Positions 1-46,220 of a stretch of 64,000 bases of DNA are shown here, in pieces (the first letter of the stretch is position 1; every line of letters begins with the position of its first letter). The translations under genes and the position numbers were made by a program. The notes beneath the pieces were generated by a model. It saw only the letters and a program-made list of their open reading frames with translations, searched no databases and had not been told where the DNA came from. The DNA comes from a virus. The stretch is from IMG/VR virus record IMGVR_UViG_3300020220_003261, one strand, 5' to 3'.

Positions 1-777
1 GGTATACCCGGTTATGATTTTTTAATCGGATTTACCTCGTATTCAAGATACGCAGTTCAAATATTTGATATTGATAATAATATTATTCATTTAGAATCTA
101 ATATAACAACCAATTATAAAACTAATATTGCTTTAACTATTGACACATATGAAAAAGAAATAAAGATGTATCAAGATGGTGTATTAGTGGACAGTAAAAA
201 AATAAAAAAATTAAGAGATTATTATAGTAAGAATAGAAAATTTTATTTAGGATGTAGTAACCCTAATAGAAAAGACAATCAAAAATTTTTTAAGGGCACC
301 ATATCTAACTTTGCAGTTTTTTCTGACGTGTTAAATTATGATGAAATCAAAGAAATTTCAGATAACAAGTATTTTGGATTGACACAAAACTTCGGTAACT
401 ATAAATCAGACCATAGAGTGATATTATATTATGATGCTAAATTTATAAAGGGTTATAAATTAATTGATTTAAGTGGGAATGGTAATGACGGTGAAATACA
501 CAATTGTGAAATCGTAGGTGAATCATTTGAAGATTACATTGAAATCGAAATACCATACAGAAGAAAATCAACATTTGAATTGATTCCACATAGAGAAAAT
601 GGGTATATTAAAAATGGATGGAAAAATAAATTAACCAGATACAATCAATTAAGATTTTATAATGAAACTCTTAAAGGTTCTACAGATTTTAAAAAAGATG
701 GTTTAAATAATTGTGAATATGTTGAACATTCATACGTAAAAAATAAAAACGAAAATCATATTATTGTAGGAATATAA
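1..777 (+). CDS. GT7 (beta-1,4-galactosyltransferase-like) protein with LamG/ConA insert; 5'-truncated by window edge
   Basis: Frame 1 is open from base 1 (GIPGYDFLIG...) into the 166..777 ORF. C-terminus PYRR..F..IPH.ENG...KDGLN parallels the next gene; LamG-like FYLG..N..FFKGTISNFAVF segment. Confidence 0.75.
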   Translation, partial: GIPGYDFLIGFTSYSRYAVQIFDIDNNIIHLESNITTNYKTNIALTIDTYEKEIKMYQDGVLVDSKKIKKLRDYYSKNRKFYLGCSNPNRKDNQKFFKGTISNFAVFSDVLNYDEIKEISDNKYFGLTQNFGNYKSDHRVILYYDAKFIKGYKLIDLSGNGNDGEIHNCEIVGESFEDYIEIEIPYRRKSTFELIPHRENGYIKNGWKNKLTRYNQLRFYNETLKGSTDFKKDGLNNCEYVEHSYVKNKNENHIIVGI

Positions 778-28561: not shown

Positions 28562-28996
28562 ATGATATATTGGTTTACAGGACAGCCCGGATCGGGTAAA
28601 ACAACATTAGCTCTGGAATTAATGAAACATCTTCCGGCCGCAACCACTGTTCATATTGACGGTGATCACTTAAGGGATATTTTTAAAAATAAGGACTATT
28701 CTGAAGCAGGACGGAGAAAGAATATAGAAAGAGCGCAAGATATTGCTAAGTTCTTAAATACCAAAGGTTATTCGGTTATAGTGTCTTTAGTTTCCCCATA
28801 TAAGGACCAAAGAGATAAATTCAAATCAGAAAATTCTGTAGTAGAGATATATGTTCATACCAACGAAACAAGAGGTAGAGAACACTTTTCTGTAGATGAC
28901 TACAACCCACCAACTGAAAGATATCTTGATATGGATACAACAAATCAAACAATAGAAGAATCCACTAATAAATTACTTAATACTATATTTTTATGA
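28562..28996 (+). CDS. cysC: Adenylyl-sulfate (APS) kinase
   Basis: WFTGQPGSGKTT P-loop, IDGDHLR, VSLVSPY..R. Confidence 0.9.
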   Translation: MIYWFTGQPGSGKTTLALELMKHLPAATTVHIDGDHLRDIFKNKDYSEAGRRKNIERAQDIAKFLNTKGYSVIVSLVSPYKDQRDKFKSENSVVEIYVHTNETRGREHFSVDDYNPPTERYLDMDTTNQTIEESTNKLLNTIFL

Positions 28997-29367
28997 AAAG
29001 GTACGCAATGTACATTGGCAGGTGGCAAAATTGGCACGCCGGTCACGAATGGCTTATTCGCCAGCAATTAGATAAAGGTAAAAATGTATGGGTAGCTATC
29101 AGAGATGTACAAGTTGATGAAAATAATCCAAAATCAGCAAAAGAGGTATTTTGGTCATTAAAAAATGAACCATTTTTTGCTAATAATACGGACAAAATAA
29201 TGGTATCTGTCATTCCAGATATAGAATCCGTGAATTATGGTAGAGGTGTTGGATATGATGTTATTTATCATGAGCCGCCAAATGAAATCGCCGAAATAAG
29301 CGGAACTAAAATTAGAAAAGGAGAAATTGATGTCAATGGTAAAACGACACATAGCAAAGAGTATTAG
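28993..29367 (+). CDS. Small HIGH-superfamily nucleotidyltransferase
   Basis: IGRWQNWHAGH (HxGH) and ISGTKIR (KMSKS-like). Confidence 0.75.
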   Translation: MKRYAMYIGRWQNWHAGHEWLIRQQLDKGKNVWVAIRDVQVDENNPKSAKEVFWSLKNEPFFANNTDKIMVSVIPDIESVNYGRGVGYDVIYHEPPNEIAEISGTKIRKGEIDVNGKTTHSKEY

Positions 29368-29545
29368 CTATAGATTTGTAGGTACAATAACCACAATCAT
29401 ATTATCTGTATCTGCTGGCCTACCACTAAAGTGGGCGGGTATGGTTGGTTTGGGTGAGTTTATTTTGAAGCCTATCATATATTTTTTACATGAGAGAGTT
29501 TGGTACAAATGGATAAAATATGGGTTAAAAAATAAAACAATTTAG
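29330..29545 (+). CDS. DUF2061-like small membrane protein
   Basis: KSISYR..T, hydrophobic core, YFLHERVW. Confidence 0.8.
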   Translation: MSMVKRHIAKSISYRFVGTITTIILSVSAGLPLKWAGMVGLGEFILKPIIYFLHERVWYKWIKYGLKNKTI

Positions 29546-29644: not shown

Positions 29645-30151
29645 ATGATAAAAGTAATTGATAATATTTTAACTAAATCTGAGTTTTCTTTTCTAAAAAA
29701 AATTATTAACAACCCCAATTTCTATGCGGACAATAAACCACATACTAAGGTTGATTCAAAAAATTATTACAATCGTAAATTCATAACACCTACGGATAAT
29801 ATAGAAAAAAGGATATATGAGTGTTTAAAATTAGAATATGACTCGCTTAAATTCAAAATTTCTAATTGTTGGATAAACCATATATATGTGGATACAAACA
29901 AAAATGATAATTTTCATAAAGACAGTTCAGATGTTTCTACGGTACTTTTTTTAAATGAGGGATTTATTGGTGGTAATTTTGAATATAAAGATTTTAATGG
30001 TGATATTAATATTATAACACCGAAAGAAAATCGTTTAATCGTAATCGATAAAGAATGTTTACATAGAGTTAGCAACGTAATTGAAGGTAATAGATACACT
30101 TTTGTAGCGTTTTTACATTTTCAAGAAAAAACAAGTAAAACAATAATATGA
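29645..30151 (+). CDS. 2OG-Fe(II) oxygenase
   Basis: FHKD, VLFLNE.F.GG.F, HRVSNVIEGNRY; ends SKTII. Confidence 0.85.
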   Translation: MIKVIDNILTKSEFSFLKKIINNPNFYADNKPHTKVDSKNYYNRKFITPTDNIEKRIYECLKLEYDSLKFKISNCWINHIYVDTNKNDNFHKDSSDVSTVLFLNEGFIGGNFEYKDFNGDINIITPKENRLIVIDKECLHRVSNVIEGNRYTFVAFLHFQEKTSKTII

Positions 30152-30159
30152 AATTGATA

Positions 30160-30167
30160 TATTTATA
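30160..30167 (+). promoter_or_regulatory. TAYTTATA motif (putative late promoter) before ATP-grasp/Hint gene
   Basis: TATTTATA 17 nt before ATG; the same motif precedes five other genes. Confidence 0.4.
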
Positions 30168-30184
30168 AAAAAAGGAAAAAATCT

Positions 30185-31633
30185 ATGAAATCAGTATTAA
30201 TAGCAACAGATTTAATAAAAACAACTTCAGGAGAAATTAAGGTACTCGAAACCAATACTAATGTAAAAATAGGTCAACCTTTTGGTACTAACACACATTA
30301 CATGGATGGTATCATACCATTTATACAGAATGGTGGTTTTCAAACAGTTCATTGTATTTTGCCAAGAAGTTCACATTATTTTAGTGATGAATTAAATAGG
30401 GTTTGTAATTCTTTAAACATACCACTAACCATACACTTTACTACACCTGACGCCATTACAGTTCCTTTTATTGAGGATTCAGATGATGTGTTAATCATAA
30501 GATTAACATACGATACAACAGCAATAATCGATGATGATTATTGTAGAGATAAATTCGCATTACAGAAAATAATTAATACTAAATCTTATGGTTCAAAAAC
30601 ATATATACCAAATGTTTTAGATGATTTTGATGGTATTGAAGATTTTATATTCAATGAGAACGCTCCAAATTTTATAATTAAAAAACGTTTTCCAAACTAC
30701 AATAAAGAAGTGTGGCCAAAATTGTATAAAATTGAAAATTTAAACCAATTAAACACATTAAAATCAGAAATCGAATCTGATTGTTATTTACAGGAATTCC
30801 ATAATTCCGAATTGATTGATGGAAAAAGATGTATTATCAGAACTCTCGATTTATTATATGGTTCAAATTTAGATGTTTTGAATATTTGTAGTTTTTATAG
30901 AACATCAGAATTGGCCGAGGGCTATTGGCCGAATACGTTTGATGAAAATGGATTACTAGCCTTTAAAGACAGATTTAAATATTTATCTCACGCCTCACAT
31001 GAGGATTCATATATATCAGAATATGTTTACGATGTTGACCAAGAAGTTGTAATGGGTGATGGTAGTAAAAAAATGTTCGCACTTTTAGAAGTTGGAGACC
31101 AAGTAAAAGGAATTCACATTGAGGGATTGGATTTAGATGAATCATCATACGATTTAAAAACTTGGACTGGTAATTATTCTGATTTTATTCAAAATTACAA
31201 TTTAGTAACAACCGAAGTAAAATATACACACACTTCACCCCCAACAAACAAATTATTTTTAAGAGTTACTCTTAACGATGGTAATACACAATGGGATGAT
31301 TTGGGTATTTCTCGAATATTAATAAAGGATAACGATTTGATTAGATTTACATTATTTGAAAATTTAGAAGTGGGTGATGAAATTGTCACATATAATTTTG
31401 AAACTAATTCTGTAGAAATCAAATCAATTCAAACAATAGAAGTTGTTTATAAAGAAAATCAAATTTTAGGCGTTCTTGATGCAGAACCAACTGATTTATA
31501 TCTACCATTAGTTTCTGATAAAATAACAATTATACAACATAACCTGTGTAAAGCTCTATGTAGAAGTACTCAATGTGCTAATGCGACACAATGCGGTGAC
31601 TGCACTACATTTCAATGTTTAAACCAAAAATAA
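30185..31633 (+). CDS. Circularly permuted ATP-grasp + Hint domain + C-terminal six-Cys peptide
   Basis: N-terminal D-x11-ETN metal motif, IIKKRFP, YLQEF; Hint V.MGDGSKK..LEVGD.V ... LEVGDEI ... IIQHN; tail LCKALCRSTQCANATQCGDCTTFQCLNQK. Confidence 0.7.
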   Translation: MKSVLIATDLIKTTSGEIKVLETNTNVKIGQPFGTNTHYMDGIIPFIQNGGFQTVHCILPRSSHYFSDELNRVCNSLNIPLTIHFTTPDAITVPFIEDSDDVLIIRLTYDTTAIIDDDYCRDKFALQKIINTKSYGSKTYIPNVLDDFDGIEDFIFNENAPNFIIKKRFPNYNKEVWPKLYKIENLNQLNTLKSEIESDCYLQEFHNSELIDGKRCIIRTLDLLYGSNLDVLNICSFYRTSELAEGYWPNTFDENGLLAFKDRFKYLSHASHEDSYISEYVYDVDQEVVMGDGSKKMFALLEVGDQVKGIHIEGLDLDESSYDLKTWTGNYSDFIQNYNLVTTEVKYTHTSPPTNKLFLRVTLNDGNTQWDDLGISRILIKDNDLIRFTLFENLEVGDEIVTYNFETNSVEIKSIQTIEVVYKENQILGVLDAEPTDLYLPLVSDKITIIQHNLCKALCRSTQCANATQCGDCTTFQCLNQK

Positions 31634-31656
31634 ATTACTTATAAAATAATTAGAAT

Positions 31657-31767
31657 ATGTTAATAAAAATTATATTTCAGCCAACAGAAGAGTCTACGAA
31701 ACTAAATTTGGATACCGTGATAAAGGATGTTGCCTCCACTATTAAGACAGACATTCAAAACGGTTAA
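31657..31767 (+). CDS. Small 36-aa protein (MLIKIIFQPTEESTKLNLDTVIKDVASTIKTDIQNG); not in ORF track
   Basis: Open frame fills the gap between two genes; TACTTATA motif at 31636..31643 upstream. Confidence 0.55.
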   Translation: MLIKIIFQPTEESTKLNLDTVIKDVASTIKTDIQNG

Positions 31768-31773
31768 AATACT

Positions 31774-32067
31774 ATGGGATTAGATATTAAAGAAATAACT
31801 AAAGCTTGGTTTGATTCTTATTTTGCAAAAGAAGAACAAAAAGCTTTAGCAAAAAAAAGATTTGAAATATGTAAAAATTGTCCATCTTTAAAGAATAAGT
31901 TTCAAATACTTTGGCCAAAAATGGAAATAACAGTTTGTGGTGAATGTGGATGTCCAATAAAAAAAAAGATTTTTTCATCTAACTTTAATGCGTGTCCATT
32001 AAAAAAATGGAAGGAGGTGGATATGGAAAATATGAAACTATTTGAAAAAAATAAAACTTTAATATAA
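31774..32067 (+). CDS. DUF6171-like Cys-rich (metal-binding) protein
   Basis: R..ICKNCP..CGECGCP..CPLKKW; ends NKTLI. Confidence 0.6.
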   Translation: MGLDIKEITKAWFDSYFAKEEQKALAKKRFEICKNCPSLKNKFQILWPKMEITVCGECGCPIKKKIFSSNFNACPLKKWKEVDMENMKLFEKNKTLI

Positions 32068-32124
32068 ATTACTTAAAAGTGTGATTTACTAAAAAATTTA
32101 TAGTAAAGGAATAAATTAATTAAT

Positions 32125-32724
32125 GTGAATTATCCTTTTTATCAAGAAGTTATTTTTACGGGAGAAGAATGTAAAAAAATAATAGAATATTCTAAAAAAT
32201 ATCCGGCACTCGCTGAAAAGAGAAAATTAGAACCAAAAATAGATTTGACCACAGGTAGAGTAGAACAATTGTTCCAATCTAACGATGGTGATAAGAAAGG
32301 AAAGGCTTTCTTCGTTTATGATATTGTTAGAGATGAGACTACTGAATGGGTTTTTAAAAAACTATTAAATTGGTTTCAAATGGTTTCGGATATTAAATTA
32401 AAAGAAACGCCCGTAGTAAATGGTATGACTCTACTTAATTATAGAGTTGGTGATTTTTTTATGAAACATACGGATATATATGAAAATTTTGAGTGGAGAA
32501 GATGGACATTAAACATTCAATTAGGTAATCAATATAAAGGGGGTGATTATGTTTTGTATTTAGATGACAAAGAAGTTATCTTAAATAAAGATACGGGAAA
32601 CGCAATTGCATATTGGGCCGGTACTGAACACGAAATAAAAGAAATAGAAGAAGGAGAAAGGTGGTCTATTGTTTGTACTATTACTAAGTATATGATTGTT
32701 GAAAAAGAAAAGAAGTTATTTTAA
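32125..32724 (+). CDS. 2OG-Fe(II) oxygenase
   Basis: KHTD, YKGGDY, HEIKEIEEGERWS; GTG start; ends EKKLF. Confidence 0.85.
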   Translation: MNYPFYQEVIFTGEECKKIIEYSKKYPALAEKRKLEPKIDLTTGRVEQLFQSNDGDKKGKAFFVYDIVRDETTEWVFKKLLNWFQMVSDIKLKETPVVNGMTLLNYRVGDFFMKHTDIYENFEWRRWTLNIQLGNQYKGGDYVLYLDDKEVILNKDTGNAIAYWAGTEHEIKEIEEGERWSIVCTITKYMIVEKEKKLF

Positions 32725-32725
32725 A

Positions 32726-33418
32726 ATGTCCCTATTAATAAATGATGAGTTAATATGGGTATCAATACCGAAAAATGCGAGTCATTCGATTGAAAATTCA
32801 CTTTATTTATCTAATCTTAAAATTGAAAACTTTGATTCCAAACTTAATAATTTAAATCCATCTAATCCAAAATTTTTGCATAAACACCATAAGTTAGATG
32901 ATATGTGTAAATATTGGAAAAACAAAAAATCAATTTGTGTAAAAAGAGACTTTGTGGATAGATGGATTTCCGCATTATCGTACACTTGGGACCAATTTAA
33001 AAAAAAAGAATTATCTCCGATTATTGAGTATGAGGATATAGACAATAATTTTATTTATAAAACCTTTGATAAAAAATTTTCAGATATTTTATATGGTCAT
33101 GATGGTAGAGTTGAAATTATAAAATATCTAATTAAAGATAAATTAAACGAAGATAGTTTATTTGAAAATAGAATAAGCGTATTTTTTTCACAAAATTATT
33201 GGCTTGGATTAAGTAAAAATTGTGATTATGAATTCAATATAAATGAGTTAGATAAGTTGGTTGATTTTATTGAAAACAAATATGGGGAAAAATTATTGTT
33301 AAATAAATTTAACGTATCAAAAAAACAAAGGAATAAAATAATAATAAATAACGAGTTTAAAAACCACATATGGGAGATTTTTGAAAAACCATTTGTAAAA
33401 ACGAAAAAAATTTTGTAA
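32726..33418 (+). CDS. Sulfotransferase family 2-like protein
   Basis: WVSIPKNASHS (5'-PSB-like) and KRDFVDRWISA (3'-PB-like). ATG 32726 preferred; ends TKKIL. Confidence 0.6.
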   Translation: MSLLINDELIWVSIPKNASHSIENSLYLSNLKIENFDSKLNNLNPSNPKFLHKHHKLDDMCKYWKNKKSICVKRDFVDRWISALSYTWDQFKKKELSPIIEYEDIDNNFIYKTFDKKFSDILYGHDGRVEIIKYLIKDKLNEDSLFENRISVFFSQNYWLGLSKNCDYEFNINELDKLVDFIENKYGEKLLLNKFNVSKKQRNKIIINNEFKNHIWEIFEKPFVKTKKIL

Positions 33419-33423
33419 ATAAG

Positions 33424-34041
33424 ATGCACGGTAAAGAAAAAATAAAGATTTCTAAAGATGAGATAAAAATTATTAATAGTAATTTGCCAACAAATACTAT
33501 AATGCATTCGGGTGAAAAACATTTAATGGCTAGACTTGCGGACATTGCAACAAAAAATGGCGGTGATATTTTAGAAATTGGTTTTGGTTTACACCTATCC
33601 GCCGATGCTGTTCAGAGTAATCCAAATGTAAAATCACATACTATCATTGAAATACATCCTGAAATATATAAATCGGCATTAACTTGGGCAAAAGATAAAC
33701 CAAATGTTAATATTATTTTAGGTGATTGGATTAAAATTTTACCAATATTAGGGGGAAAATTTGATGGTATAATTCACGATACTCATATAGATAGAAACAT
33801 TCCATTTTTTTTGGATTATGTTAAAAATAATTGTAAAAAGGGTGCCATTGTCGCTTTTTTTGAGTATATGTTATTTGATACAAGATTTAATGGAGTTAGA
33901 TATAAATTGAACAAAGAAGACTACGATTCTTTACCTTACAGAAATAATCAATGTTTTTTTAATTACGAATACGAATTAAAATATACAACATTTAATGGTA
34001 TTGATTTTTATTCAGATAGAAAAGTTGACAAATTAATTTAA
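33424..34041 (+). CDS. GAMT/RMT2-like class I methyltransferase
   Basis: GGDILEIGFG..SADAVQ, HTIIEIHP, GDW, FDGIIHDT; ends DKLI. Confidence 0.75.
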   Translation: MHGKEKIKISKDEIKIINSNLPTNTIMHSGEKHLMARLADIATKNGGDILEIGFGLHLSADAVQSNPNVKSHTIIEIHPEIYKSALTWAKDKPNVNIILGDWIKILPILGGKFDGIIHDTHIDRNIPFFLDYVKNNCKKGAIVAFFEYMLFDTRFNGVRYKLNKEDYDSLPYRNNQCFFNYEYELKYTTFNGIDFYSDRKVDKLI

Positions 34042-34043
34042 AA

Positions 34044-35090
34044 ATGATTGATTTAAAGAATTATATATGTAGAGTACCTTTTGATTCATTAGAAATACAT
34101 AATAATGTTTGTTTTGTCTGCTGTCCTTCTTGGTTACCAAATAGAGTAGAACTAAATAAAATTCCATTAAGAGATGTTTATAATAGTAAACCAATAATTG
34201 ATATTCGAAAATCAATTTTGGATGGTACATTTAAATACTGTGATAAAGAAATGTGTCCTCATTTGAGTAAAGTAATAAAATATGATATTCCTGCAGGCCC
34301 GATTATTAAAAAAAATAGTGTAGAAAAATTTGATTTAATAATAAAAAATAATACACCAGATAATGTGGTAATGAACTTTGATAGAACATGTAATTATAAA
34401 TGCCCTTCGTGTAGAATAAATTTAATTGTTGAGGATAGTAATGGAATTAAAAGAATTGAAAAAACAATAGAAGAAATTGATACTTACTATTCTGCAAATG
34501 TAAAAACATTGTATATTACAGGTACAGGCGACCCATTTGTATCAGTAGGGTTTAGAAATTATTTAAGAAATTTTAACACTAAAAAATATCCAAAATTACA
34601 ATCAATACATTTACATACAAACGCATCAATGTGGAATCAAGAAATGTGGGAATCAATGCCAAACGTACACAAATATGTAAAAACGTGTGAAATTAGTATT
34701 GATGCCGGAACAAAGGATACTTATGAAAATAAAACTAGATTGGGTGGTAATTGGGAAAATTTACTAAATAACTTAAAGTTTATATCTACGATACCAACAT
34801 TGTATAGAGTTAAAACATCATTTGTGGTACAAGATTCCAATTATATGGAAATGGAAACATTTTATAATTTAATGTATTCTATATTTGGTGAAAAAGTAAA
34901 TGTATTTTTTGGTAAAATAACAAATTGGGGAACATATTCTGAAGGTGAGTTTAAATTAAAGCAAGTTTGGAATTTTGAACATCCGGAACATATGTTATTT
35001 AAAAAAGAATTTAATAAGATATGGAGGAACCAACGACTTTTTCATAATTTATATGAGTTCATTGATAATACAAATAAAACGTTAATATAA
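34044..35090 (+). CDS. Radical SAM enzyme with N-terminal Cys cluster
   Basis: YIC..PF..CCPSWL..C..CP, RTCNYKCPSC, ITGTGDPF; ends NKTLI. Confidence 0.85.
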   Translation: MIDLKNYICRVPFDSLEIHNNVCFVCCPSWLPNRVELNKIPLRDVYNSKPIIDIRKSILDGTFKYCDKEMCPHLSKVIKYDIPAGPIIKKNSVEKFDLIIKNNTPDNVVMNFDRTCNYKCPSCRINLIVEDSNGIKRIEKTIEEIDTYYSANVKTLYITGTGDPFVSVGFRNYLRNFNTKKYPKLQSIHLHTNASMWNQEMWESMPNVHKYVKTCEISIDAGTKDTYENKTRLGGNWENLLNNLKFISTIPTLYRVKTSFVVQDSNYMEMETFYNLMYSIFGEKVNVFFGKITNWGTYSEGEFKLKQVWNFEHPEHMLFKKEFNKIWRNQRLFHNLYEFIDNTNKTLI

Positions 35091-35587
35091 TGAAGATTTT
35101 ATTAATAACCCTACCCAGAACAGGATCCACTTCATTATTAAAAAATTTATCAGAACAATATAATTTAAATGCAATAAGTGAACCATTCAACCCATCTACT
35201 AAAAATTTAGAACAATATAAAAATTTTGATTGGAATACTACAAATGAAATATGTGTTAAAACCCATATAAATCACAAAGACATATCATTCTATACAGATT
35301 TTGTAAAACTATTTGATAAAGTAATTTTAGTATCTAGAAAGGATTTAAAGTTGTGTGCTGAGAGTTTGGCATATGCAAATCATTTTGGAAATTTTAGTGA
35401 AAAATACAAATGGATTAATACACCTAATTTAACACATAATGTAAAATTAGTAAAAAAATTTGACGCAGATTTAAAAAAATTATCAGAACTAATTAATATT
35501 GATATATTATACTATGAAGATTTGTTTGATATAAATTCTGAAAATAAATTAAGAAAAAATGTTGTTAAAAGAAAAAATCTTATTTAG
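35090..35587 (+). CDS. Sulfotransferase-like P-loop protein
   Basis: LPRTGSTSL, EPFN, R.DL...AES, YYEDLF; ends KNLI. Confidence 0.65.
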   Translation: MKILLITLPRTGSTSLLKNLSEQYNLNAISEPFNPSTKNLEQYKNFDWNTTNEICVKTHINHKDISFYTDFVKLFDKVILVSRKDLKLCAESLAYANHFGNFSEKYKWINTPNLTHNVKLVKKFDADLKKLSELINIDILYYEDLFDINSENKLRKNVVKRKNLI

Positions 35588-36077
35588 TAAAAAAGAGTGT
35601 GAATATATTATTGAGTTATCTAAAAATTTACCAAATACTAAACCATACACTAGTAAAAGTGACCAATTTAAAGTTTCTTATGATGCTTGGAAATTAATTT
35701 TAGATAATAATTCTCAATGGATTTTTGATAAAATCACTCAATACTTTACATATGCAACTAATCTAAAAATAAAAAAAGAATTAAGTACGTTATATATCCA
35801 CAAATATAATGTAGGTCAACAATTTGAAAAGCATAACGATACGCAATATAAAACTCAAATACACAATGTAGGTGTATGTTTAAATGATGATTATGTAGGT
35901 GGTGATTTTATCTTATATAATCCAAAGGAAATACTACCGAAAAGACAAGGTGAAATATACACATTTCCTAGTAGTAGATTTCATGAGGTTGAACAAATAG
36001 TAAAGGGTGAACGATGGAGTATAATTGGATTTATACATATAGAAAATATTTATTTATCTAATAAAACTTTAATATGA
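35559..36077 (+). CDS. 2OG-Fe(II) oxygenase
   Basis: KHND, LNDDYVGGDF, HEVEQIVKGERWS; ends NKTLI. Confidence 0.85.
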   Translation: MLLKEKILFSKKECEYIIELSKNLPNTKPYTSKSDQFKVSYDAWKLILDNNSQWIFDKITQYFTYATNLKIKKELSTLYIHKYNVGQQFEKHNDTQYKTQIHNVGVCLNDDYVGGDFILYNPKEILPKRQGEIYTFPSSRFHEVEQIVKGERWSIIGFIHIENIYLSNKTLI

Positions 36078-36631
36078 AAATCGCAATAACCGGTCACAGC
36101 GATGGCGTTGGTAAAAGTATTTATGAAAAACTTTTGAAAGAGTTTAGTGTAATTGGACTAAGTAGGACTAATGGATATGATATTAAAAACGTTGACGAAA
36201 TATTGAAACAAGTAGAAGAGTGTGATGTTTTTATTAATAACGCTTTCCAACAAAACTACCAAACGTTATTATTTGAAAAACTTTTTTACAGATGGAAATA
36301 TACCACAAAGTTAATTATTAATATGAACAGTAGTTGTGTATACGAGTCGTCAGACTGGAATCCGACATATGCGAATATTAAAAAGGATTTTAAAGAAGTT
36401 TCTATGAATATCATAAGAAGCAATATTGATAAGAAAGTTAGGATAACTAATTTGTATCCATCAACACTATCTTCTCACACAAGATTTGAAAAATTAAATA
36501 AAATTGATATTAACTATATTTCAGACGTTATTCTTTGGTTAGTGTCTCAACCTAAAGAGGTCGAAATAAGAGAAATGAGTATTTATAGTACAACTTTGGA
36601 GAAAGAATTTAAAATAGATAAGTTAATGTGA
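36074..36631 (+). CDS. Short-chain dehydrogenase/reductase
   Basis: IAITGHSDGVG, FINNA, YANIK; ends DKLM. Confidence 0.8.
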   Translation: MKIAITGHSDGVGKSIYEKLLKEFSVIGLSRTNGYDIKNVDEILKQVEECDVFINNAFQQNYQTLLFEKLFYRWKYTTKLIINMNSSCVYESSDWNPTYANIKKDFKEVSMNIIRSNIDKKVRITNLYPSTLSSHTRFEKLNKIDINYISDVILWLVSQPKEVEIREMSIYSTTLEKEFKIDKLM

Positions 36632-37167
36632 ATGTTTGTATAGTTTGTTATAGTAGAGTCGGTGGTACATCTTTTGGAAAATGGTTAAGTTTAGAATTAA
36701 ACTACACTTATATACAGGAACCATTTAATCAAAATCATAACGAATTATATAAAAACACAGATTATTCCGAAAATAAATTTGTTATAAAATTAGAACCTGA
36801 ACAAGTTGAATTAATTAAAACAGATAAAAAAACGATTGGATTAATAAGAGAAAACACAATGGATTGTGCAATAAGTTTACTACATTGTTTAGAAAGTGGT
36901 AAATGGCACAGAGAATATAGTGTAAATCAAAATTAGATTGATTACAACAAAAAAAGGTTAGAAGAAATAGAACTACAAATAAAAAATCAGAACACTAATA
37001 TTAAAAAAATGAATACGGATATTTTAGTAACATATGAAGGTATATATAATACACGTTCAGATATACTAAAACTAAAAGAATTTTTTAATATTAAAAATTT
37101 TTCATATATTTCTACATATTTAAACCCAAAAATACGTTATAGAAATGGTAATAAAATAATAATATAA
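36628..37167 (+). pseudogene. Sulfotransferase-like gene interrupted by an in-frame TAG at 36934..36936
   Basis: YSRVGGTSF, EPFN; the frame stays open for 76 more codons (DILVTYEGIY...NKIII) to TAA 37167. Confidence 0.7.
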
Positions 37168-37189
37168 ATTTGGAGCGATTCTCATTACT

Positions 37190-37218
37190 TTGGTTCTTGC
37201 AAAAAGAAAATATAAAAT
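37190..37218 (+). promoter_or_regulatory. sigma70-like promoter TTGGTT-17-TAAAAT
   Basis: Intergenic; 19 nt before ATG 37238. Confidence 0.35.
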
Positions 37219-37237
37219 TTAAAACAAATAAACTATT

Positions 37238-38035
37238 ATGAATCCTTTACAATATTGGAAACCAGAAGGATTCGAAATTTCATCTTACAAATATTCATTA
37301 AGAGAAAGAGTAAATCAAACATATACAACTTCGGGTGGAGATAATACAAATTTATGTACTTACACATATAATGAATTGGGATTTAGAGGTGATAGTATAA
37401 AAAAAGAAGGTTTCAAAGTAATGTCATTAGGATGTTCAATCACAGAAGGGGTTGGGGTAAATGATGACGAGACCTGGCCCGCGCAATTTTGTAACCATAT
37501 TGAAAACGGGGTAAATTTAAATTTTGGAACCGGAGGAAGAAGTAACGATTTTATTTGCAGATGTTTAATAAGTTATTATGATTTAATACAACCTGATTTA
37601 GTTTTAATTATGTATACATTTCCGCATAGAAGAGAAGTTTATACAGAAGATAACGGAATAGAACCATATGTACCAACAAAAGTTTGGGGAAAATTATTAG
37701 AAACTAAAGAGGGACAAATTATACAAAATAGTATGGATGTTTTACAAAACGATAACTCTGATTTTATAAACTGGTATAAAAATCATATTCTAATTAAGTA
37801 CTTTTTAGAAAGTAAAAAATGTAATTGGTTGTGGAATGGGAAAAACTTAAATATCAATTACAATGAATTCAATAGATTTGATGGGGAAAAATCATTTTTA
37901 GATAAGGGAAGTGACGATAAGCACCCTGGTCCAAAAACACATAATAGAGATGCAAATTTATTATACGATTATATTAGAATGAAATTTCCAAACTATATTC
38001 CAAAAAACGAACATGCCTTTCTTAAAATAATTTAG
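37238..38035 (+). CDS. SGNH-family protein (GCS variant)
   Basis: YTYNELGFRG, SLGCSITEGVG, NFGTGGRSND, DKHPG; ends LKII. Confidence 0.7.
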   Translation: MNPLQYWKPEGFEISSYKYSLRERVNQTYTTSGGDNTNLCTYTYNELGFRGDSIKKEGFKVMSLGCSITEGVGVNDDETWPAQFCNHIENGVNLNFGTGGRSNDFICRCLISYYDLIQPDLVLIMYTFPHRREVYTEDNGIEPYVPTKVWGKLLETKEGQIIQNSMDVLQNDNSDFINWYKNHILIKYFLESKKCNWLWNGKNLNINYNEFNRFDGEKSFLDKGSDDKHPGPKTHNRDANLLYDYIRMKFPNYIPKNEHAFLKII

Positions 38036-40798: not shown

Positions 40799-41454
40799 GT
40801 ACCTTAAACAAAATTGCACAATCGTATGGAACGGATAAAAGTTCAGATATACACAACTACTGTGTAAAATATGAAAAATATCTACCATTTAATAGATACG
40901 AAGAATTGAACATTTTAGAAATTGGAATCTTAAACGGTAAGTCACTTAAAACATGGAAAGAATATTACTATCGTTCTAAAATTGTCGGTATTGACATCAA
41001 TCCTGATTGTAAACAATATGAAGAAGAAAGAGTAAGTGTTGAAATTGGATCACAGGTAGATGGAAGTTTTCTATCTCGTGTTCGGCAACAATATGGTCCA
41101 TTTGATATGATATTAGATGATGGTTCACATATGAATTCACATGTTATATACTCTTTTCAAAACTTGTGGAAAAGCCTAAAATCTGGCGGTGTTTATATAA
41201 TAGAAGATTGTGGAACTGCATATTGGGAAGATTATGAGGGCGGTTATTTGAAACCAACAACAAGTGTTGAGGCATTTAAATCTTTAGTTGATGATGTAAA
41301 TTTTAGAGGACTAATGAATTTAGATAAACCAAATGTACATGCAAGAAGAGAAGATTGGTTAATAGAATTATCAAAAAAAACACAACCATTTTGTGTTGTG
41401 GATATCGAGTCAATAAACTTTTTAAACGGAATTATTATAATAACAAAAAGATAA
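40795..41454 (+). CDS. Sugar O-methyltransferase-like (MycE/Methyltransf_24-type)
   Basis: GTDK..HNY..YE, LEIGI..GKS, ILDDGSH, GGVYIIED. Confidence 0.85.
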   Translation: MSTLNKIAQSYGTDKSSDIHNYCVKYEKYLPFNRYEELNILEIGILNGKSLKTWKEYYYRSKIVGIDINPDCKQYEEERVSVEIGSQVDGSFLSRVRQQYGPFDMILDDGSHMNSHVIYSFQNLWKSLKSGGVYIIEDCGTAYWEDYEGGYLKPTTSVEAFKSLVDDVNFRGLMNLDKPNVHARREDWLIELSKKTQPFCVVDIESINFLNGIIIITKR

Positions 41455-43574
41455 TGGGATATACGTTCGAAGAGGATATTTTTGTAATTGATTGTTGGTT
41501 AGATACTGTCGAAAAGGAAAACACTCTATTAAAATTAATTGAAAGAATTAAAGTTTTTAATATACCAATAATTTTATGTGGGCATTTTCCTGTAAATCCA
41601 AAAATTCAGAAACAAGTTGATTATTTTATTTATGATAAAAATAATGATATTTTGTTGGAAAAAGATTTTAATCAGTATGAAGTAATGAGTGATAGGTGGT
41701 CAATTATGAATGACTATAAAGTTTTTAACAAAGTAGATTTTCATCATGACTATGCTATTTGGATCACTATGAAAAATGCTTTTAATTTAGTTAAACAACT
41801 AAATAAAAAATATATCCATTTTCTCGAATATGATAACATACCCGACGAAATTCAATATCGACAAGCTTTTATGGAATATATTAGAAACCACGATGCTGTT
41901 GTATATGAATATATGCCAGGTTCAACCAATCAAATGCAACCATATTGTTCGACATATATTTTTTCAATAAAAACCGATGTTGCATTATCAGTGATTAATA
42001 AAGTTAATAATAAAGAAGAGTATTTCAAAAATAGACCAAATGGTTGGCAATTAGAAAAAGTTTTCTTTCAAACGTTAAAAGGTGTGACAAGTAATATATT
42101 TGTAAGTAAGTATATACCTAATGATAATGAACTTAATATATATGCAGCTTGGAACAGAAATGGAATTTTAAAAAATGGTGCAATTTTTCAAACTTACTTG
42201 GCTGTAGACGAATCCAACAAATTACATATTCATTTCATTTCTGGATTTTCAGAAAAAGACGCTGATAAAGATTACTTATGTGAGATAAACTATTCAAACA
42301 CCAAATTTTTCTTTACTGTAAAAAGAAAACAATATCACTTAGAATTGTTGGGTGACTATATAGAAAATGAAACTGTTAGAGTTTTTTATCAGGGTATTGA
42401 AGTTTTCACACAAAAACTGACCGAAGATGTTATAAAATTTAAAAGAAAAAACATTTTAGAATGGAAAAATAAAGTATCAAATAGAAAGATAAATGTTCAT
42501 TTTATTGATGGTGCATATGTTGAAATATTGGACAACATACCTTTGAAATATAATGTTCAATTTATTGATAAAAAAAATAACAATATTGTTTATAGCACAG
42601 AATTAATCAGCAACCATTGGTGTAAGACTTCTTTGAAATATTATGTCGACTGGGAAATTAGGATAAAAGGAATAGATAACGATTATTTGGAATATCACAA
42701 TTTTACAACTGAGAATAATAAATTTTATATCTCTTTTGAGACAAAATCTTTGGGTGACACATTAGCTTTTATACCTTATGTTGAGGAATTTAGAAAAGAA
42801 AAAAAATGTAAAATAATATGTTCGACTTTCCATAATGAATTGTTCAGAAAACAGTATCCCGAAATTGAGTTTGTAAATCCTGGAACAAATGTTAACAATA
42901 TTATGGGTCTTTACAGATTAGGACTCTTTTATAATGGATCTAATGTTGATTATGAAAAACATCCTTATAATCCTCTTAAAGAACCGTTACAAAAAATTGC
43001 ATCAGATATACTAGGTTTAGACTACAAAGAAATTAAACCATTTTTACCAAAATTAGGAGGACATAAAAAGAAAAGAGTGTGTATTGCAATTCACTCTACA
43101 TCACAATGTAAATATTGGAATAACCCACATGGATGGCAAGAAGTAGTTGATTATATAAAATCCCAAGGATATGAAGTTAGGTTACTATCAAGAGAAGAAG
43201 ACGGTTACATGGGAAATAAAAACCCGAAAGGAATAAAACAACAACCAAATAGTTCAACTATCGAAATACTTAAAGTTCTACAAGAGTCACATTTATTTAT
43301 AGGAATAAGTAGTGGTTTGAGTTGGTTGGCATGGGCTTCAGATATACCTGTAATATTGGTATCGGGATTTACAGATGTTTATTTAGAACCATTTAAAGAT
43401 GTGACTAGAATTATAAATAAAGATGTGTGTAACGGATGTTGGCATAATCATAAGTTTGATCCGGGAGATTGGTATTGGTGTCCAATTCATAAAGGAACAG
43501 ACAAACAATACGAATGTTCAAAAGAAATAAGTGGGCAAAATGTTATTTCTTCGATAAAAAAATTTTTAGTTTAA
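41454..43574 (+). CDS. Autotransporter O-heptosyltransferase (Aah/TibC)-like protein with N-terminal extra GT-like domain
   Basis: KSLGDTLAFIPY, HSTSQCKYWNN..W, FIGISSGLSWLAW..VILVSGF, CNGCW..DWYWCPIH..QYECSK four-Cys motif. ATG 41454 preferred. Confidence 0.8.
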   Translation: MGYTFEEDIFVIDCWLDTVEKENTLLKLIERIKVFNIPIILCGHFPVNPKIQKQVDYFIYDKNNDILLEKDFNQYEVMSDRWSIMNDYKVFNKVDFHHDYAIWITMKNAFNLVKQLNKKYIHFLEYDNIPDEIQYRQAFMEYIRNHDAVVYEYMPGSTNQMQPYCSTYIFSIKTDVALSVINKVNNKEEYFKNRPNGWQLEKVFFQTLKGVTSNIFVSKYIPNDNELNIYAAWNRNGILKNGAIFQTYLAVDESNKLHIHFISGFSEKDADKDYLCEINYSNTKFFFTVKRKQYHLELLGDYIENETVRVFYQGIEVFTQKLTEDVIKFKRKNILEWKNKVSNRKINVHFIDGAYVEILDNIPLKYNVQFIDKKNNNIVYSTELISNHWCKTSLKYYVDWEIRIKGIDNDYLEYHNFTTENNKFYISFETKSLGDTLAFIPYVEEFRKEKKCKIICSTFHNELFRKQYPEIEFVNPGTNVNNIMGLYRLGLFYNGSNVDYEKHPYNPLKEPLQKIASDILGLDYKEIKPFLPKLGGHKKKRVCIAIHSTSQCKYWNNPHGWQEVVDYIKSQGYEVRLLSREEDGYMGNKNPKGIKQQPNSSTIEILKVLQESHLFIGISSGLSWLAWASDIPVILVSGFTDVYLEPFKDVTRIINKDVCNGCWHNHKFDPGDWYWCPIHKGTDKQYECSKEISGQNVISSIKKFLV

Positions 43575-43595: not shown

Positions 43596-43627
43596 ATATT
43601 TATATGAGTATAATACCATATAAATAT
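43596..43627 (+). promoter_or_regulatory. 11-bp perfect inverted repeat covering the tail-fibre start codon; 5' arm contains the TATTTATA motif
   Basis: ATATTTATATG (43596..43606) / CATATAAATAT (43617..43627); ATG at 43626. Confidence 0.55.
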
Positions 43628-46220
43628 GAAAATATTTCAGCCTTTAATAACTGGTTCGTTAAGTGTATCAGGCTCAACGACGATTAGTCAAGATTTAACA
43701 GTCCTTGGAACCATCAATGCGACGATTAGTGGTACCACAACAAACGCAATTACCGCTTCATATGCTTTAAATGCAGATACTATTGATAATATTGATTCAT
43801 TAAGATTAGCAACAACTGGAAGTAACACATTTAATGCAGATCAAACAGTAACTGGATCAATAAAGATTCAAGGAGATTTATACATTAACGGGACTCAGTA
43901 TACGGCTGCAACATCAGGAACCTCAGGAACAAGCGGTTCTTCTGGTTCATCAGGAACTTCAGGATCATCTGGTAGCTCTGGTTCGTCTGGTTCTTCTGGT
44001 AGCTCAGGTTCTTCGGGAACAAGCGGTTCTTCTGGTTCATCAGGAACAAGTGGTAGCTCAGGTACATCAGGAACCTCTGGTACAAGTGGAACATCAGGAA
44101 CTTCAGGATCATCTGGTAGCTCTGGTTCGTCTGGTTCTTCTGGTAGCTCAGGTTCTTCGGGAACTAGTGGAACATCTGGTTCATCAGGAACAAGTGGTAG
44201 CTCAGGTACATCAGGAACCTCTGGTACAAGTGGAACATCAGGATCATCAGGATCATCTGGATCGAGTGGTACTGTAACAATGACAGGAGCTCAAGATAAT
44301 GGTGTATTAACATTAAACGGTTCCTCTCCAAATGTGACCGCCGAAACTAATTTAACATTTGATGGCACAACATTAACTGTTACTGGTGACGTATTAATAA
44401 CAAATAATTTATTAGTACAAGGAACAAATACAAATTTACAAGTTACTCAATTGTTTATTGAGGACAAGACAATAACATTAGCTAGTGGTTCTTTAACAGC
44501 AGCAGCTGCCAATGGTGCAGGTATTGAGGTAGTTGGCCCAACAACAGCGGCAACAATCACATATACAAGTGCGAACGATAGTTGGAATACTAATAAAATA
44601 TTAAGAGTTCCTGAGTTATTCATAAATGGAACACAATATACTGCGGCAACCTCAGGTACAAGTGGTTCATCTGGTTCTTCGGGAACAAGTGGAACATCGG
44701 GATCAAGTGGTTCGTCTGGATCTTCTGGTAGCTCAGGTTCTTCGGGAACAAGTGGAACATCGGGATCAAGTGGTTCGTCTGGATCTTCTGGTTCATCAGG
44801 AACCTCTGGTACAAGTGGAACATCGGGATCAAGTGGTTCGTCTGGATCCTCTGGTAGCTCAGGTTCTTCGGGAACTTCAGGAAGTTCAGGTTCATCAGGA
44901 ACCTCAGGTAGTAGTGGTAGCTCAGGTTCATCTGGAACATCAGGTTCTTCTGGATCATCAGGAACCTCAGGTAGTAGTGGTAGCTCAGGTTCATCAGGAA
45001 CCTCAGGTAGTAGTGGTAGCTCAGGTTCATCTGGAACATCAGGTTCTTCTGGTTCATCAGGTTCATCAGGAACCTCAGGTAGTAGTGGTAGCTCAGGTTC
45101 ATCTGGAACATCAGGTTCTTCTGGTTCTTCTGGATCATCAGGAACCTCAGGTAGTAGTGGTAGCTCAGGTTCATCAGGTTCATCAGGAAGTTCTGGGTCA
45201 AGCGGATCAAGTGGATCAAGTGGATCAAGTGGATCATCAGGTACTTCAGTTTCAGTATCAGGAACTAACAATACATTAGTTAAATTCACATCAGCATCAA
45301 CAGTGGGTAATTCATCCATTACAGATGATGGTACAACAGTAACAATTGGTGGTAACTTAGTTATTTCAGGTACACAAACAACAGTTAACTCAACAACCGT
45401 TAATATTGCTGATAATATTATTCAATTAAATGGTACTGGAGCAACAAACGCAGGTTTAGTTGTAAGAGACGCTACCGCATCTACGTTGGTATCAGGTTCA
45501 TTTTTGTGGGATACAACAAATGATAAATGGATTGCGGGTCCGTTAGGATCTGAAGATGATGTTGTATTAAAAACAGCATCGCAAACTTTAACGAATAAAA
45601 CAATTAACGCTTCCCAATTAGTTGATGCATCTGTAACAAATGCTAAATTAACTAACTCATCTTTAACAGTTACGGCTGGTACAGGTATGAGTGGTGGAGG
45701 ATCAGTTGCATTAGGGTCATCGGTAACATTAACAAATGCCGGTGTGACATCGGCGGTTGCAGGAACGGGTGTTAGTGTAAGTGCCGGAACAGGAGCGGTA
45801 ACAATTTCAATTGGTCAAGCCGTAGCGACCAACTCGAATGTTCAATTTAACGCTTTAGGTGTTGGAACCGCTGCACCAAACACGGCAGGTTTGATTAGAG
45901 CAACAAATGACGTAATTGCTTTCTATGGCTCAGATATAAGATTAAAAGAAAATATAACACCTATATCTAATCCAATCGAAAAGTTAAAACAAATAAATGG
46001 TTACGAATTTGATTGGATTCCTTTAGAGGGTATTCACGAAAATGAAGGTCATGATATTGGAGTGGTTGCTCAAGAGATTGAAGAAGTCTTACCTGAAATT
46101 GTAACAACAAGAGATAATGGTTATAAGGCTGTTAAGTATGAAAAACTTGTGGCGTTATTAATCGAATCTAATAAAGAATTACTTAGGAAAATTGAAATAC
46201 TTGAGAATAAACTTAGGTAA
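43626..46220 (+). CDS. Phage tail fibre with two Ser/Thr-Gly triplet tracts and C-terminal peptidase S74 intramolecular chaperone
   Basis: SDIRLKENI..GYEFDW..DIGVVAQE.E.VLPE..YKAVKYEKLVALLIE; (S/T)SG repeats. Confidence 0.9.
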   Translation: MKIFQPLITGSLSVSGSTTISQDLTVLGTINATISGTTTNAITASYALNADTIDNIDSLRLATTGSNTFNADQTVTGSIKIQGDLYINGTQYTAATSGTSGTSGSSGSSGTSGSSGSSGSSGSSGSSGSSGTSGSSGSSGTSGSSGTSGTSGTSGTSGTSGSSGSSGSSGSSGSSGSSGTSGTSGSSGTSGSSGTSGTSGTSGTSGSSGSSGSSGTVTMTGAQDNGVLTLNGSSPNVTAETNLTFDGTTLTVTGDVLITNNLLVQGTNTNLQVTQLFIEDKTITLASGSLTAAAANGAGIEVVGPTTAATITYTSANDSWNTNKILRVPELFINGTQYTAATSGTSGSSGSSGTSGTSGSSGSSGSSGSSGSSGTSGTSGSSGSSGSSGSSGTSGTSGTSGSSGSSGSSGSSGSSGTSGSSGSSGTSGSSGSSGSSGTSGSSGSSGTSGSSGSSGSSGTSGSSGSSGSSGTSGSSGSSGSSGTSGSSGSSGSSGTSGSSGSSGSSGTSGSSGSSGSSGSSGSSGSSGSSGSSGSSGSSGTSVSVSGTNNTLVKFTSASTVGNSSITDDGTTVTIGGNLVISGTQTTVNSTTVNIADNIIQLNGTGATNAGLVVRDATASTLVSGSFLWDTTNDKWIAGPLGSEDDVVLKTASQTLTNKTINASQLVDASVTNAKLTNSSLTVTAGTGMSGGGSVALGSSVTLTNAGVTSAVAGTGVSVSAGTGAVTISIGQAVATNSNVQFNALGVGTAAPNTAGLIRATNDVIAFYGSDIRLKENITPISNPIEKLKQINGYEFDWIPLEGIHENEGHDIGVVAQEIEEVLPEIVTTRDNGYKAVKYEKLVALLIESNKELLRKIEILENKLR
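43911..44273 (+). repeat. (S/T)-S-G tripeptide tract 1 (about 120 aa) with 144-bp DNA periodicity
   Basis: caggaacttcaggatcatctggtagctctgg... at both 43951 and 44095. Confidence 0.9.
44649..45245 (+). repeat. (S/T)-S-G tripeptide tract 2 (about 200 aa) with multiple DNA-level repeat units
   Basis: ggaacctcaggtagtagtggtagctcaggttcatc recurs several times between about 44900 and 45180. Confidence 0.9.

Follow-up and report, generated by a model that had tools for sequence, protein, structure and literature searches.

In borosins such as OphMA, the precursor of a ribosomally synthesised and post-translationally modified peptide (RiPP) is fused to a biosynthetic enzyme, while graspetides are the RiPPs of ATP-grasp enzymes and pheganomycin-type pathways use an ATP-grasp for peptide ligation. 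Here, we analysed a 64,000-nucleotide stretch of viral DNA (IMG/VR virus record IMGVR_UViG_3300020220_003261, hereafter the window) and, within it, a plus-strand gene at 30185..31633 whose 482-residue product joins an N-terminal ATP-grasp domain, a Hint domain and a short Cys-rich tail. We give about an even chance to the reading that this gene is a self-releasing, RiPP-like precursor of a tailored Cys-framework peptide, at the centre of a phage peptide-tailoring operon. As in the borosin, graspetide and pheganomycin-type systems, the enzyme and the candidate core lie on one polypeptide, the core is variable and the enzyme conserved, and tailoring enzymes are co-encoded. Unlike borosins and graspetides, the system is phage-encoded, release would be autocatalytic through the Hint domain instead of requiring a separate protease, and a common C-terminal tag on the enzymes takes the place of a leader on the substrate. 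The ATP-grasp also differs from that of graspetides, being permuted and GspS-like, not RimK-like.

The tandem arrays of 2-oxoglutarate (2OG)-Fe(II) dioxygenases and tryptophan halogenases in cyanophages were described as ‘rather unprecedented’ by Iyer et al. 2010, who named no substrate gene for them (PMC2938197). The locus resembles these arrays in that several distantly related 2OG oxygenases, Trp halogenases and sulfotransferases cluster in T4-like aquatic phages. It differs in the ATP-grasp/Hint/tail gene, whose product has no tblastn match (E <= 1e-3) among 50,697 deposited phage records, and in a 97-residue partner protein, which has one weak match in the same records (Roseobacter phage CRP-143, 31% identity). 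A search of the literature found no description of an ATP-grasp/Hint fusion, of a Hint-released ribosomal peptide or of this operon. The individual parts belong to known kinds, and what is new is their combination, its confinement to viruses and the tag borne by the enzymes. The features of the protein are as follows.

30185..31633, plus strand: whole open reading frame (ORF) of 482 amino acids, ATP-grasp, Hint and Cys-rich tail; stop codon at 31631..31633.
30185..31003, plus strand: residues 1–273, circularly permuted ATP-grasp domain of the GspS/YgiC/eukaryotic glutathione-synthetase type (Foldseek, VIA-align).
30209..30256, plus strand: D9..E22-x-N24, putative Mg2+/acyl-phosphate motif at the N-terminus, invariant in alignments A1 and A4.
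30680..30682, plus strand: K166 in the P-N-x-I-x-K strand, putative ATP-binding Lys, invariant, with its role assigned from the ATP-grasp motif order.
30839..30841, plus strand: R219, the sole residue invariant across all 119 homologues.
31025..31543, plus strand: residues 281–453, Hint domain with Val281 at the Cys1 position and without TxxH (structural alignment).
31538..31543, plus strand: H452-N453, terminal His-Asn and putative Asn-cyclisation site, with N453 aligned to the last intein residue.
31544..31630, plus strand: residues 454–482, 29-residue six-Cys tail ending in Lys; predicted free peptide of 3153.6 Da (average, reduced).

This three-part anatomy was put forward in an original prediction made from the sequence, and the structural model, the structural alignment and the motifs bear it out. 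The agreement extends to the N-terminal E-x-N of a circularly permuted, GspS-type ATP-grasp (fold and motif order), to a Hint domain at about 31025..31543 with Val at the nucleophile position, no TxxH and a terminal HN, and to the 29-residue tail with its C-x3-C-x4-C-x5-C-x2-C-x4-C pattern. The 482-residue protein has no match in Pfam, PHROGs, NCBIfam or PDB sequence searches, and its domain calls rest on fold and motifs, not on sequence-family membership. The ORF sits in a same-strand run of genes at 26–30% GC and is not a chance one, since a word-based search gave 119 homologues (identity down to 21%, every one ‘hypothetical’) and a profile of the N-terminal domain, searched against 1.84 billion proteins, matched at least 371 representatives of 50%-identity clusters. 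In nearly all of the 150 representatives listed, this domain begins at residue 1. The family was found only in viral or metagenome DNA, and a scan of 185,579 prokaryotic species (one genome each, with a single peptide pattern) gave no relative. An AlphaFold2 model built on the 119-sequence alignment had a predicted local distance difference test score (pLDDT) of 88.3 and a predicted template modelling score of 0.82, with pLDDT below 50 for residues 457–482.

The N-terminal domain is a permuted ATP-grasp ligase domain with a complete set of catalytic motifs, and is predicted to carry out ATP-dependent carboxylate–amine ligation. Superposition with VIA-align placed model residues 1..273 on chain 310..608 of Escherichia coli GspS (Z 9.7) and residues 1..269 on chain 94..378 of E. 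coli YgiC (Z 9.8). Residues 1–273 also matched eukaryotic glutathione and homoglutathione synthetases and the fungal ligase Cp1B (Z ∼8–10, 200–225 residues aligned). Canonical ATP-grasps (ArgX/LysX, RimK, TTLL) matched more weakly and only from model residue 53 on, which is expected if the N-terminal hairpin that carries D9..E22-x-N24 corresponds to the strand lying C-terminal in the canonical enzymes. The order of motifs, D9/E22/N24, then K166, Q203-E204 and R219, is likewise the reverse of the canonical one, and the E. coli GspS sequence presents a motif of the same shape, D318..E330-x-N332, at the start of the structural alignment. In alignment A1 (34 sequences), D9, E22 and N24 are invariant and K166, Q203-E204 and R219 are invariant or nearly so; the ATP-grasp roles given to D9, E22, N24 and K166 are putative and follow from position. 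At the level of sequence, the domain gave no Pfam or NCBIfam match to permuted ATP-grasps, its profile found nothing in the PDB at E 10, and hhalign of the profile against E. coli GspS returned a probability of 0.3.

The structural relatives (GspS, YgiC/YjfC, the glutathione synthetases and Cp1B) join the carboxylate of a peptide or acid to an amine via an acyl phosphate, and YgiC and YjfC have been named ‘peptidylpolyamine synthetases’ (PMC12568646). The phage domain shares the fold of this clade and its permuted order, D..E-x-N and then the ATP-binding Lys. It differs from the clade in having no detectable sequence similarity to it, in being much smaller (273 residues), and in being always N-terminal, fused to a Hint domain and confined to viral and metagenome DNA. 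One 291-residue representative (P0153) ends just past the ATP-grasp domain with S-K-L-I at its C-terminus, much as tagged enzymes do, and could have arisen by a gene split or a frameshift. We rejected a stand-alone form of the ATP-grasp for P0153, given that its nearest IMG/VR relatives are full-length fusions.

Residues 281..453 superpose from first to last on the Hedgehog HhC domain, bacterial intein-like (BIL) domains and mini-inteins (with 6tyy: Z 16.8, root mean square deviation 1.8 Å, 141 of 146 residues). The middle region was thereby confirmed as a Hint fold close to the Hedgehog and BIL domains, and no Pfam Hint model detects it. The active site is largely decayed. The Cys1 position is held by V in 34 of the 119 homologues, I in 34, H in 24, S in 16 and other residues in the remainder, and never by Cys. 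In block B, D372 (at least 90% conserved) takes the place of the Thr with no His after it, so that TxxH is absent (alignment A1, read by eye), and the residue at +1 of Asn453 is a Leu that varies in the family, with a conserved Cys at +2 or a little further. Lacking Cys1 or Ser1, TxxH and a +1 nucleophile, the domain is unable to splice or to cleave N-terminally. The terminal His-Asn is kept in 117 of the 119 homologues. Cleavage at the C-terminus by Asn cyclisation is known for N-terminally inactivated inteins, and the domain appears to retain the residues needed for it; we infer the cleavage itself and consider it probable at the His-Asn. In their full Hint fold and in the placement of the terminal His-Asn, as in inteins and A-type BILs, these proteins are like the BIL, Hedgehog and PT-HINT families, and they share with PT-HINT toxins a variable C-terminal cargo after the Hint. 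The phage cargo differs in being a Cys-framework peptide of 5–90 residues and not a toxin domain.

The tail of the window protein contains a CxxC and no Trp. To describe its variation we parsed, heuristically, the tails of 279 distinct family members, of which 228 had a plain tail, 19 a tail followed by a Peptidase_S74-type module, and 32 one to three further Hints. Even Cys numbers dominate the plain tails (six Cys in 138, eight in 40 and ten in 22, together 200 of 228) and odd counts are rare; 180 of the 228 have Lys among the last three residues. Across the family, tail length runs from 5 to ∼90 residues and Cys number from 1 to 16, the minimal case being P0112, with five residues and one Cys. 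Mean pairwise identity is 20% at the non-Cys positions of the tail, compared with 53% in the ATP-grasp and 49% in the Hint domain, and the ratio of non-synonymous to synonymous substitution rates (dN/dS) is 0.29 for the tail and 0.11 for the domains, with synonymous sites near saturation. By these comparisons, the tail evolves faster than the enzyme domains. Positive selection on the tail was rejected, its dN/dS being higher than that of the domains yet below 1. The original prediction had held that a conserved HN followed by a variable tail would support a precursor role, and this is what the homologues present: the HN is conserved, and the tail after it varies in sequence and length. As read from the alignments, a variable core peptide is joined to a conserved part, as is typical of RiPPs, and the even Cys counts suggest disulfides once the peptide is extracellular.

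Homologues with additional modules place the tail between autoprocessing junctions. In 15 of the 19 S74-type members, the S-D-x3-K motif begins right after the tail Lys. The Pfam model PF13884 matched P0093 at 23.9 bits, above the 22-bit cut-off, with P0108 and P0078 just under it, and all of these matches begin at profile position 1, directly past the tail Lys; if the S74 module cleaves itself off, the remaining tail would thus end in Lys just as the short forms do. In the 32 members with further Hints, the tail is followed, or interrupted, by one to three canonical Hints (Cys1 and HN) that match Pfam Intein_splicing, Hint and PT-HINT (PF07591) and sit just ahead of a final K, KK, KL or similar. 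P0245 carries a 10-Cys peptide between two canonical Hints, and in P0249 three Hints lie one or two residues apart. That the tail is flanked by such junctions argues that it is a separable product, and this is the strongest comparative argument that we have; together with minimal tails of five residues and one Cys, it also argues against an invariant structural metal site. With their cargo between a C-terminally and an N-terminally cleaving Hint, the extra-Hint members resemble the BUBL loci of Tetrahymena, and a BUBL BIL2 domain is among the best structural matches. The phage cargo differs from that of BUBL in being a Cys-rich peptide instead of a ubiquitin fold, and the window protein differs in having a single, N-terminally dead Hint together with an ATP-grasp.

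Two further arrangements were observed in the family. In the distant members P0119, P0225, P0231, P0236, P0245 and P0249, the degenerate Hint is followed by two to three tandem canonical mini-Hints, 0–3 residues apart and then a final K, KL or KK; if these splice out, the tail left is 5–7 residues long. In P0114–P0118 (674–676 residues), a CBM_4_9 carbohydrate-binding module (PF02018) is inserted within the Hint domain.

The 482-residue gene sits in a same-strand operon that recurs across 80 IMG/VR loci (of 251 found), on which all operon counts below are based. This ordered arrangement, which includes the 97-residue partner and the tagged enzymes, persists even between phages with only ∼30% identity. 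Its members in the window are as follows.

28562..29545, plus strand: adenosine 5′-phosphosulfate (APS) kinase, small nucleotidyltransferase and DUF2061, upstream of the ATP-grasp/Hint gene.
29645..30151, plus strand: 2OG-Fe(II) oxygenase (PF13640), directly upstream.
31774..32067, plus strand: 97-residue Cys-rich partner, weak DUF6171 match, phrog_13558; invariant C33, C36, C55, C58, C60 and C74.
32125..32724, plus strand: 2OG-Fe(II) oxygenase (PF13640).
32696..33418, plus strand: sulfotransferase-like protein of 240 residues, heparan sulfate 2-O-sulfotransferase profile match (E 2.8e-4).
34044..35090, plus strand: radical S-adenosylmethionine (SAM) enzyme, general Radical_SAM Pfam match, no SPASM.
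35090..35587, plus strand: 165-residue protein of a family without database match.
35559..36077, plus strand: third 2OG-Fe(II) oxygenase (PF13640).

The most constant partners are the 97-residue Cys protein, the sulfotransferase-like protein and the 2OG oxygenases. The 97-residue partner adjoins the ATP-grasp/Hint gene on the same strand in 76 of the 80 loci (∼170 nt downstream or 30–100 nt upstream), the sulfotransferase-like gene is present in 73, and the 2OG-Fe(II) oxygenase family in 78, usually in several copies, with a second 2OG oxygenase family in 64. The family of the 165-residue protein was found in 60 loci, and 60 is also the count for a 186-residue family without database match. 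A Trp halogenase (PF04820, E 1e-89) was found in 44, and DUF6071 in 41. The APS kinase, nucleotidyltransferase and DUF2061, each in 23–39 loci, likely form a sulfate-activation module. For the 97-residue partner, the model (pLDDT 83.7) had no structural match (best Z 3.6), zinc-ribbon-like sequence matches were marginal (E 0.03), and the protein atlas shows unnamed viral clusters only. A complex prediction for the 482-residue protein with this partner (score 0.26, mark 0.32) is evidence neither way.

The radical SAM gene occurs in 26–27 of the 80 loci, and its best NCBIfam match is of the twitch-domain type and far under the cut-off of that model. The link to ranthipeptides and their radical SAM enzymes drawn in the original prediction was not supported, and a ranthipeptide/SPASM system was rejected on the missing SPASM match and on the presence of the gene in about a third of the loci.

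The operon enzymes, although of unrelated folds, share a C-terminal tag, K-x(1,2)-hydrophobic-hydrophobic and often K-[ST]-L-I (window 29645–38035; loci L001–L088). It was found on 111 of 131 2OG oxygenases, 46 of 49 members of the second 2OG family, 43 of 53 of the 97-residue partners, 46 of 59 sulfotransferase-like proteins, 26 of 31 halogenases and 14 of 20 radical SAM enzymes, and also on two families without database match. Tag frequency is thus 70–94% per family, compared with a background of 24 of 310 (7.7%). None of 58 ATP-grasp/Hint proteins carries the tag, which is also absent from the APS kinase, the nucleotidyltransferase and DUF2061, and the ATP-grasp/Hint protein is the only operon protein that is always present and untagged. 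Since the tag is kept, with conservative substitutions, at ∼30% protein identity, it is a signal at the protein level, and its form would suit a class I PDZ-type C-terminal ligand.

The window combines a Trp-free tail with the lack of a halogenase gene. Most IMG/VR relatives have Trp-rich tails that start in the manner of C-W-C-P-W. Among 35 distinct tails with enough flanking sequence, a halogenase accompanied 22 of the 29 with at least two Trp and one of the six with fewer (Fisher p 0.012, relatedness uncorrected), and none of the five Trp-free tails. In loci L003–L088, the flavin Trp halogenase lies 2–3 kb upstream of the ATP-grasp/Hint gene (e.g. L083:1011-2234). In C-W-C-P-W-type tails, Trp and Cys are adjacent at most sites, and Trp-Cys chemistry is a possibility there.

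In the reading that we favour, the Hint domain would cut the bond after Asn453 by asparagine cyclisation, freeing the 29-residue tail (3.15 kDa) and removing a 52-kDa ‘leader protein’, so that a separate protease would be unneeded. Before or after release, the tail would be modified by the sulfotransferase with its 3′-phosphoadenosine 5′-phosphosulfate module, by the prolyl-hydroxylase-like 2OG oxygenases and by the radical SAM enzyme, and in Trp-rich relatives also by the flavin halogenase. The shared C-terminal tag, here of the form K-x-[ST]-hydrophobic-hydrophobic, may recruit these enzymes, and disulfides would form once the peptide is outside the cell. More speculatively, the ATP-grasp would link the peptide through an amide bond, the reaction of its structural relatives at the C-terminal carboxylate of a peptide, with the conserved terminal Lys(-hydrophobic) end of the tail as the candidate site; such ligation of the tail by the protein's own ATP-grasp is a guess from the peptide-carboxylate ligases that are its closest structural relatives. 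A precursor role is favoured by the variable tail after the HN, the second self-cleaving module in homologues, the recurrent tailoring enzymes and a tail Trp content that appears to track the halogenase. That the tail is a substrate of the co-encoded enzymes seems to us slightly the better bet, while action of the ATP-grasp on the tail falls somewhat short of an even chance. A wider proposal, that these genes represent a virus-only class of ribosomal peptide in which an ATP-grasp/Hint leader recruits tagged enzymes, amidates or cyclises the peptide and removes itself, and that conotoxin-like products (disulfide-rich, hydroxylated, sulfated and halogenated) are released at lysis by large aquatic phages, is rather doubtful as a whole.

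Several points weigh against the precursor reading. The tail is under net purifying, not diversifying, selection, and its lack of structure in the AlphaFold2 model fits a free peptide and equally an unmodelled metal site. In the Hint domain, the residue after Asn453 is not a nucleophile, the Cys lying at +2, and there is no evident counterpart of the block-F His that helps Asn to cyclise in many inteins; cleavage may therefore be slow or depend on a trigger. Members with extra Hints keep the ATP-grasp, which argues that the ligase is not simply a means of activating the tail C-terminus. The substrates of the neighbouring enzymes could instead be glycans or the collagen-like fibre encoded in the same island, and for similar phage oxygenase arrays Iyer et al. 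2010 proposed that proteins or metabolites are modified (PMC2938197). We infer all three steps, namely cleavage, ligation and modification.

Much of this would also be explained by a protein that does not cleave, in which the Hint is structural or regulatory and the Cys tail forms a Zn or Fe-S site of a ligase that acts on something else (small molecules, glycan precursors or the tagged neighbours at their C-terminal carboxylates). The CxxC in the tail, the Cys as its only strongly conserved feature, the reducing cytoplasm, the intact and invariant ATP-grasp motifs, the purifying selection on the tail and an island rich in glycosyltransferases and sugar enzymes are all consistent with it. We consider it unlikely in view of a tail that ranges from 5 to ∼90 residues and from 1 to 16 Cys (mostly even), with minimal forms of 5–7 residues and at most one Cys (P0112, and the P0119 type after Hint removal), of an HN that is retained despite decay elsewhere in the intein active site, and of the S74 and Cys1-Hint modules that flank the tail. 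A further reading is a polymorphic cargo or virion module, comparable to polymorphic toxins with a pre-toxin Hint, whose Hint would release or present a disulfide-knotted peptide that works extracellularly (an adhesin tip, toxin or signal) with no tailoring, the neighbouring enzymes serving the tail fibre or glycans. Here, the Peptidase_S74 fibre chaperone that ends some members, the CBM_4_9 insert in others, the collagen-like fibre with S74 in the same island, the match of the extra Hints to PF07591 (PT-HINT) and the even Cys counts, suggestive of disulfides, all fit. An intact ATP-dependent ligase would have no obvious role in a virion or outside the cell, the operon stays tight and ordered between phages with only ∼30% identity, and the Trp content of the tail appears to co-vary with the halogenase, all of which make this account quite improbable.

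By analogy with BUBL, the Hint and/or the ATP-grasp might activate the end of the tail for joining to an amine (for example on a virion protein, a polyamine or a tagged enzyme) or head to tail. The BIL2 domain of the BUBL1 locus is among the top structural matches, the Hint-tail-Hint order of some members is formally BIL-cargo-BIL, ligation of a peptide carboxylate to an amine is what structural relatives of the ATP-grasp catalyse, and the tail keeps its terminal Lys. The window protein, however, has no second Hint, and its sole Hint has no thioester-forming Cys; the case is one of analogy, and we regard such a conjugation device as very unlikely.

Elsewhere in the window, a broken relative of the 165-residue family lies at 36628–37167, where a 102-residue ORF related to that family is followed by a gap and a 52-residue ORF ending in a tag-like K-I-I-I; the two look like one gene that a stop or frameshift has interrupted. 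In another of the loci, at L014:8812-9319, the 97-residue partner gene occurs twice in tandem (72 and 95 residues). The collagen-like fibre is an 864-residue collagen-repeat protein with a Peptidase_S74 end (43626–46220; PF01391 E 3e-44, PF13884 E 2e-16), whose gene accounts for a local rise in GC to 42% at 44–46 kb and is preceded by a GT9 heptosyltransferase-like gene (41355–43574). Most of the ∼30 window ORFs scanned encode modification enzymes (radical SAM, glycosyltransferases, methyltransferases, a carbamoyltransferase and a UDP-sugar dehydrogenase), and among these ∼30 ORFs no virion gene besides the fibre was found; tRNAs are absent. The nearest phage relatives of the carbamoyltransferase (∼30% identity) come for the most part from cyanophages; Pelagibacter phage HTVC008M and a jumbo Ralstonia phage also rank among the top matches. 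Viral contigs that carry related loci reach 333 kb in length, and one complete 238-kb record encodes a T4-type major capsid protein (E 2e-76). The window DNA occurs in many lake-water metagenome runs, and no RNA run is listed among the sequencing runs that contain it.

The family is a concrete candidate substrate for the phage 2OG-oxygenase/halogenase/sulfotransferase arrays, namely an encoded, variable Cys-framework peptide on an untagged protein, and the wider proposal of a virus-only peptide class, if true, would identify the long-sought substrate of the phage 2OG-oxygenase/halogenase arrays. If the Hint domain releases the tail, this would be a mechanism of leader removal that is not known from ribosomal peptide biosynthesis and a natural case of Hint chemistry restricted to C-terminal cleavage. 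The tag shared by enzymes of unrelated folds points to a recruitment logic opposite to leader-peptide recognition. The family counts at least 371 clusters at 50% identity and is without annotation, so that whatever function it proves to have would add new biology to environmental viruses that are abundant.

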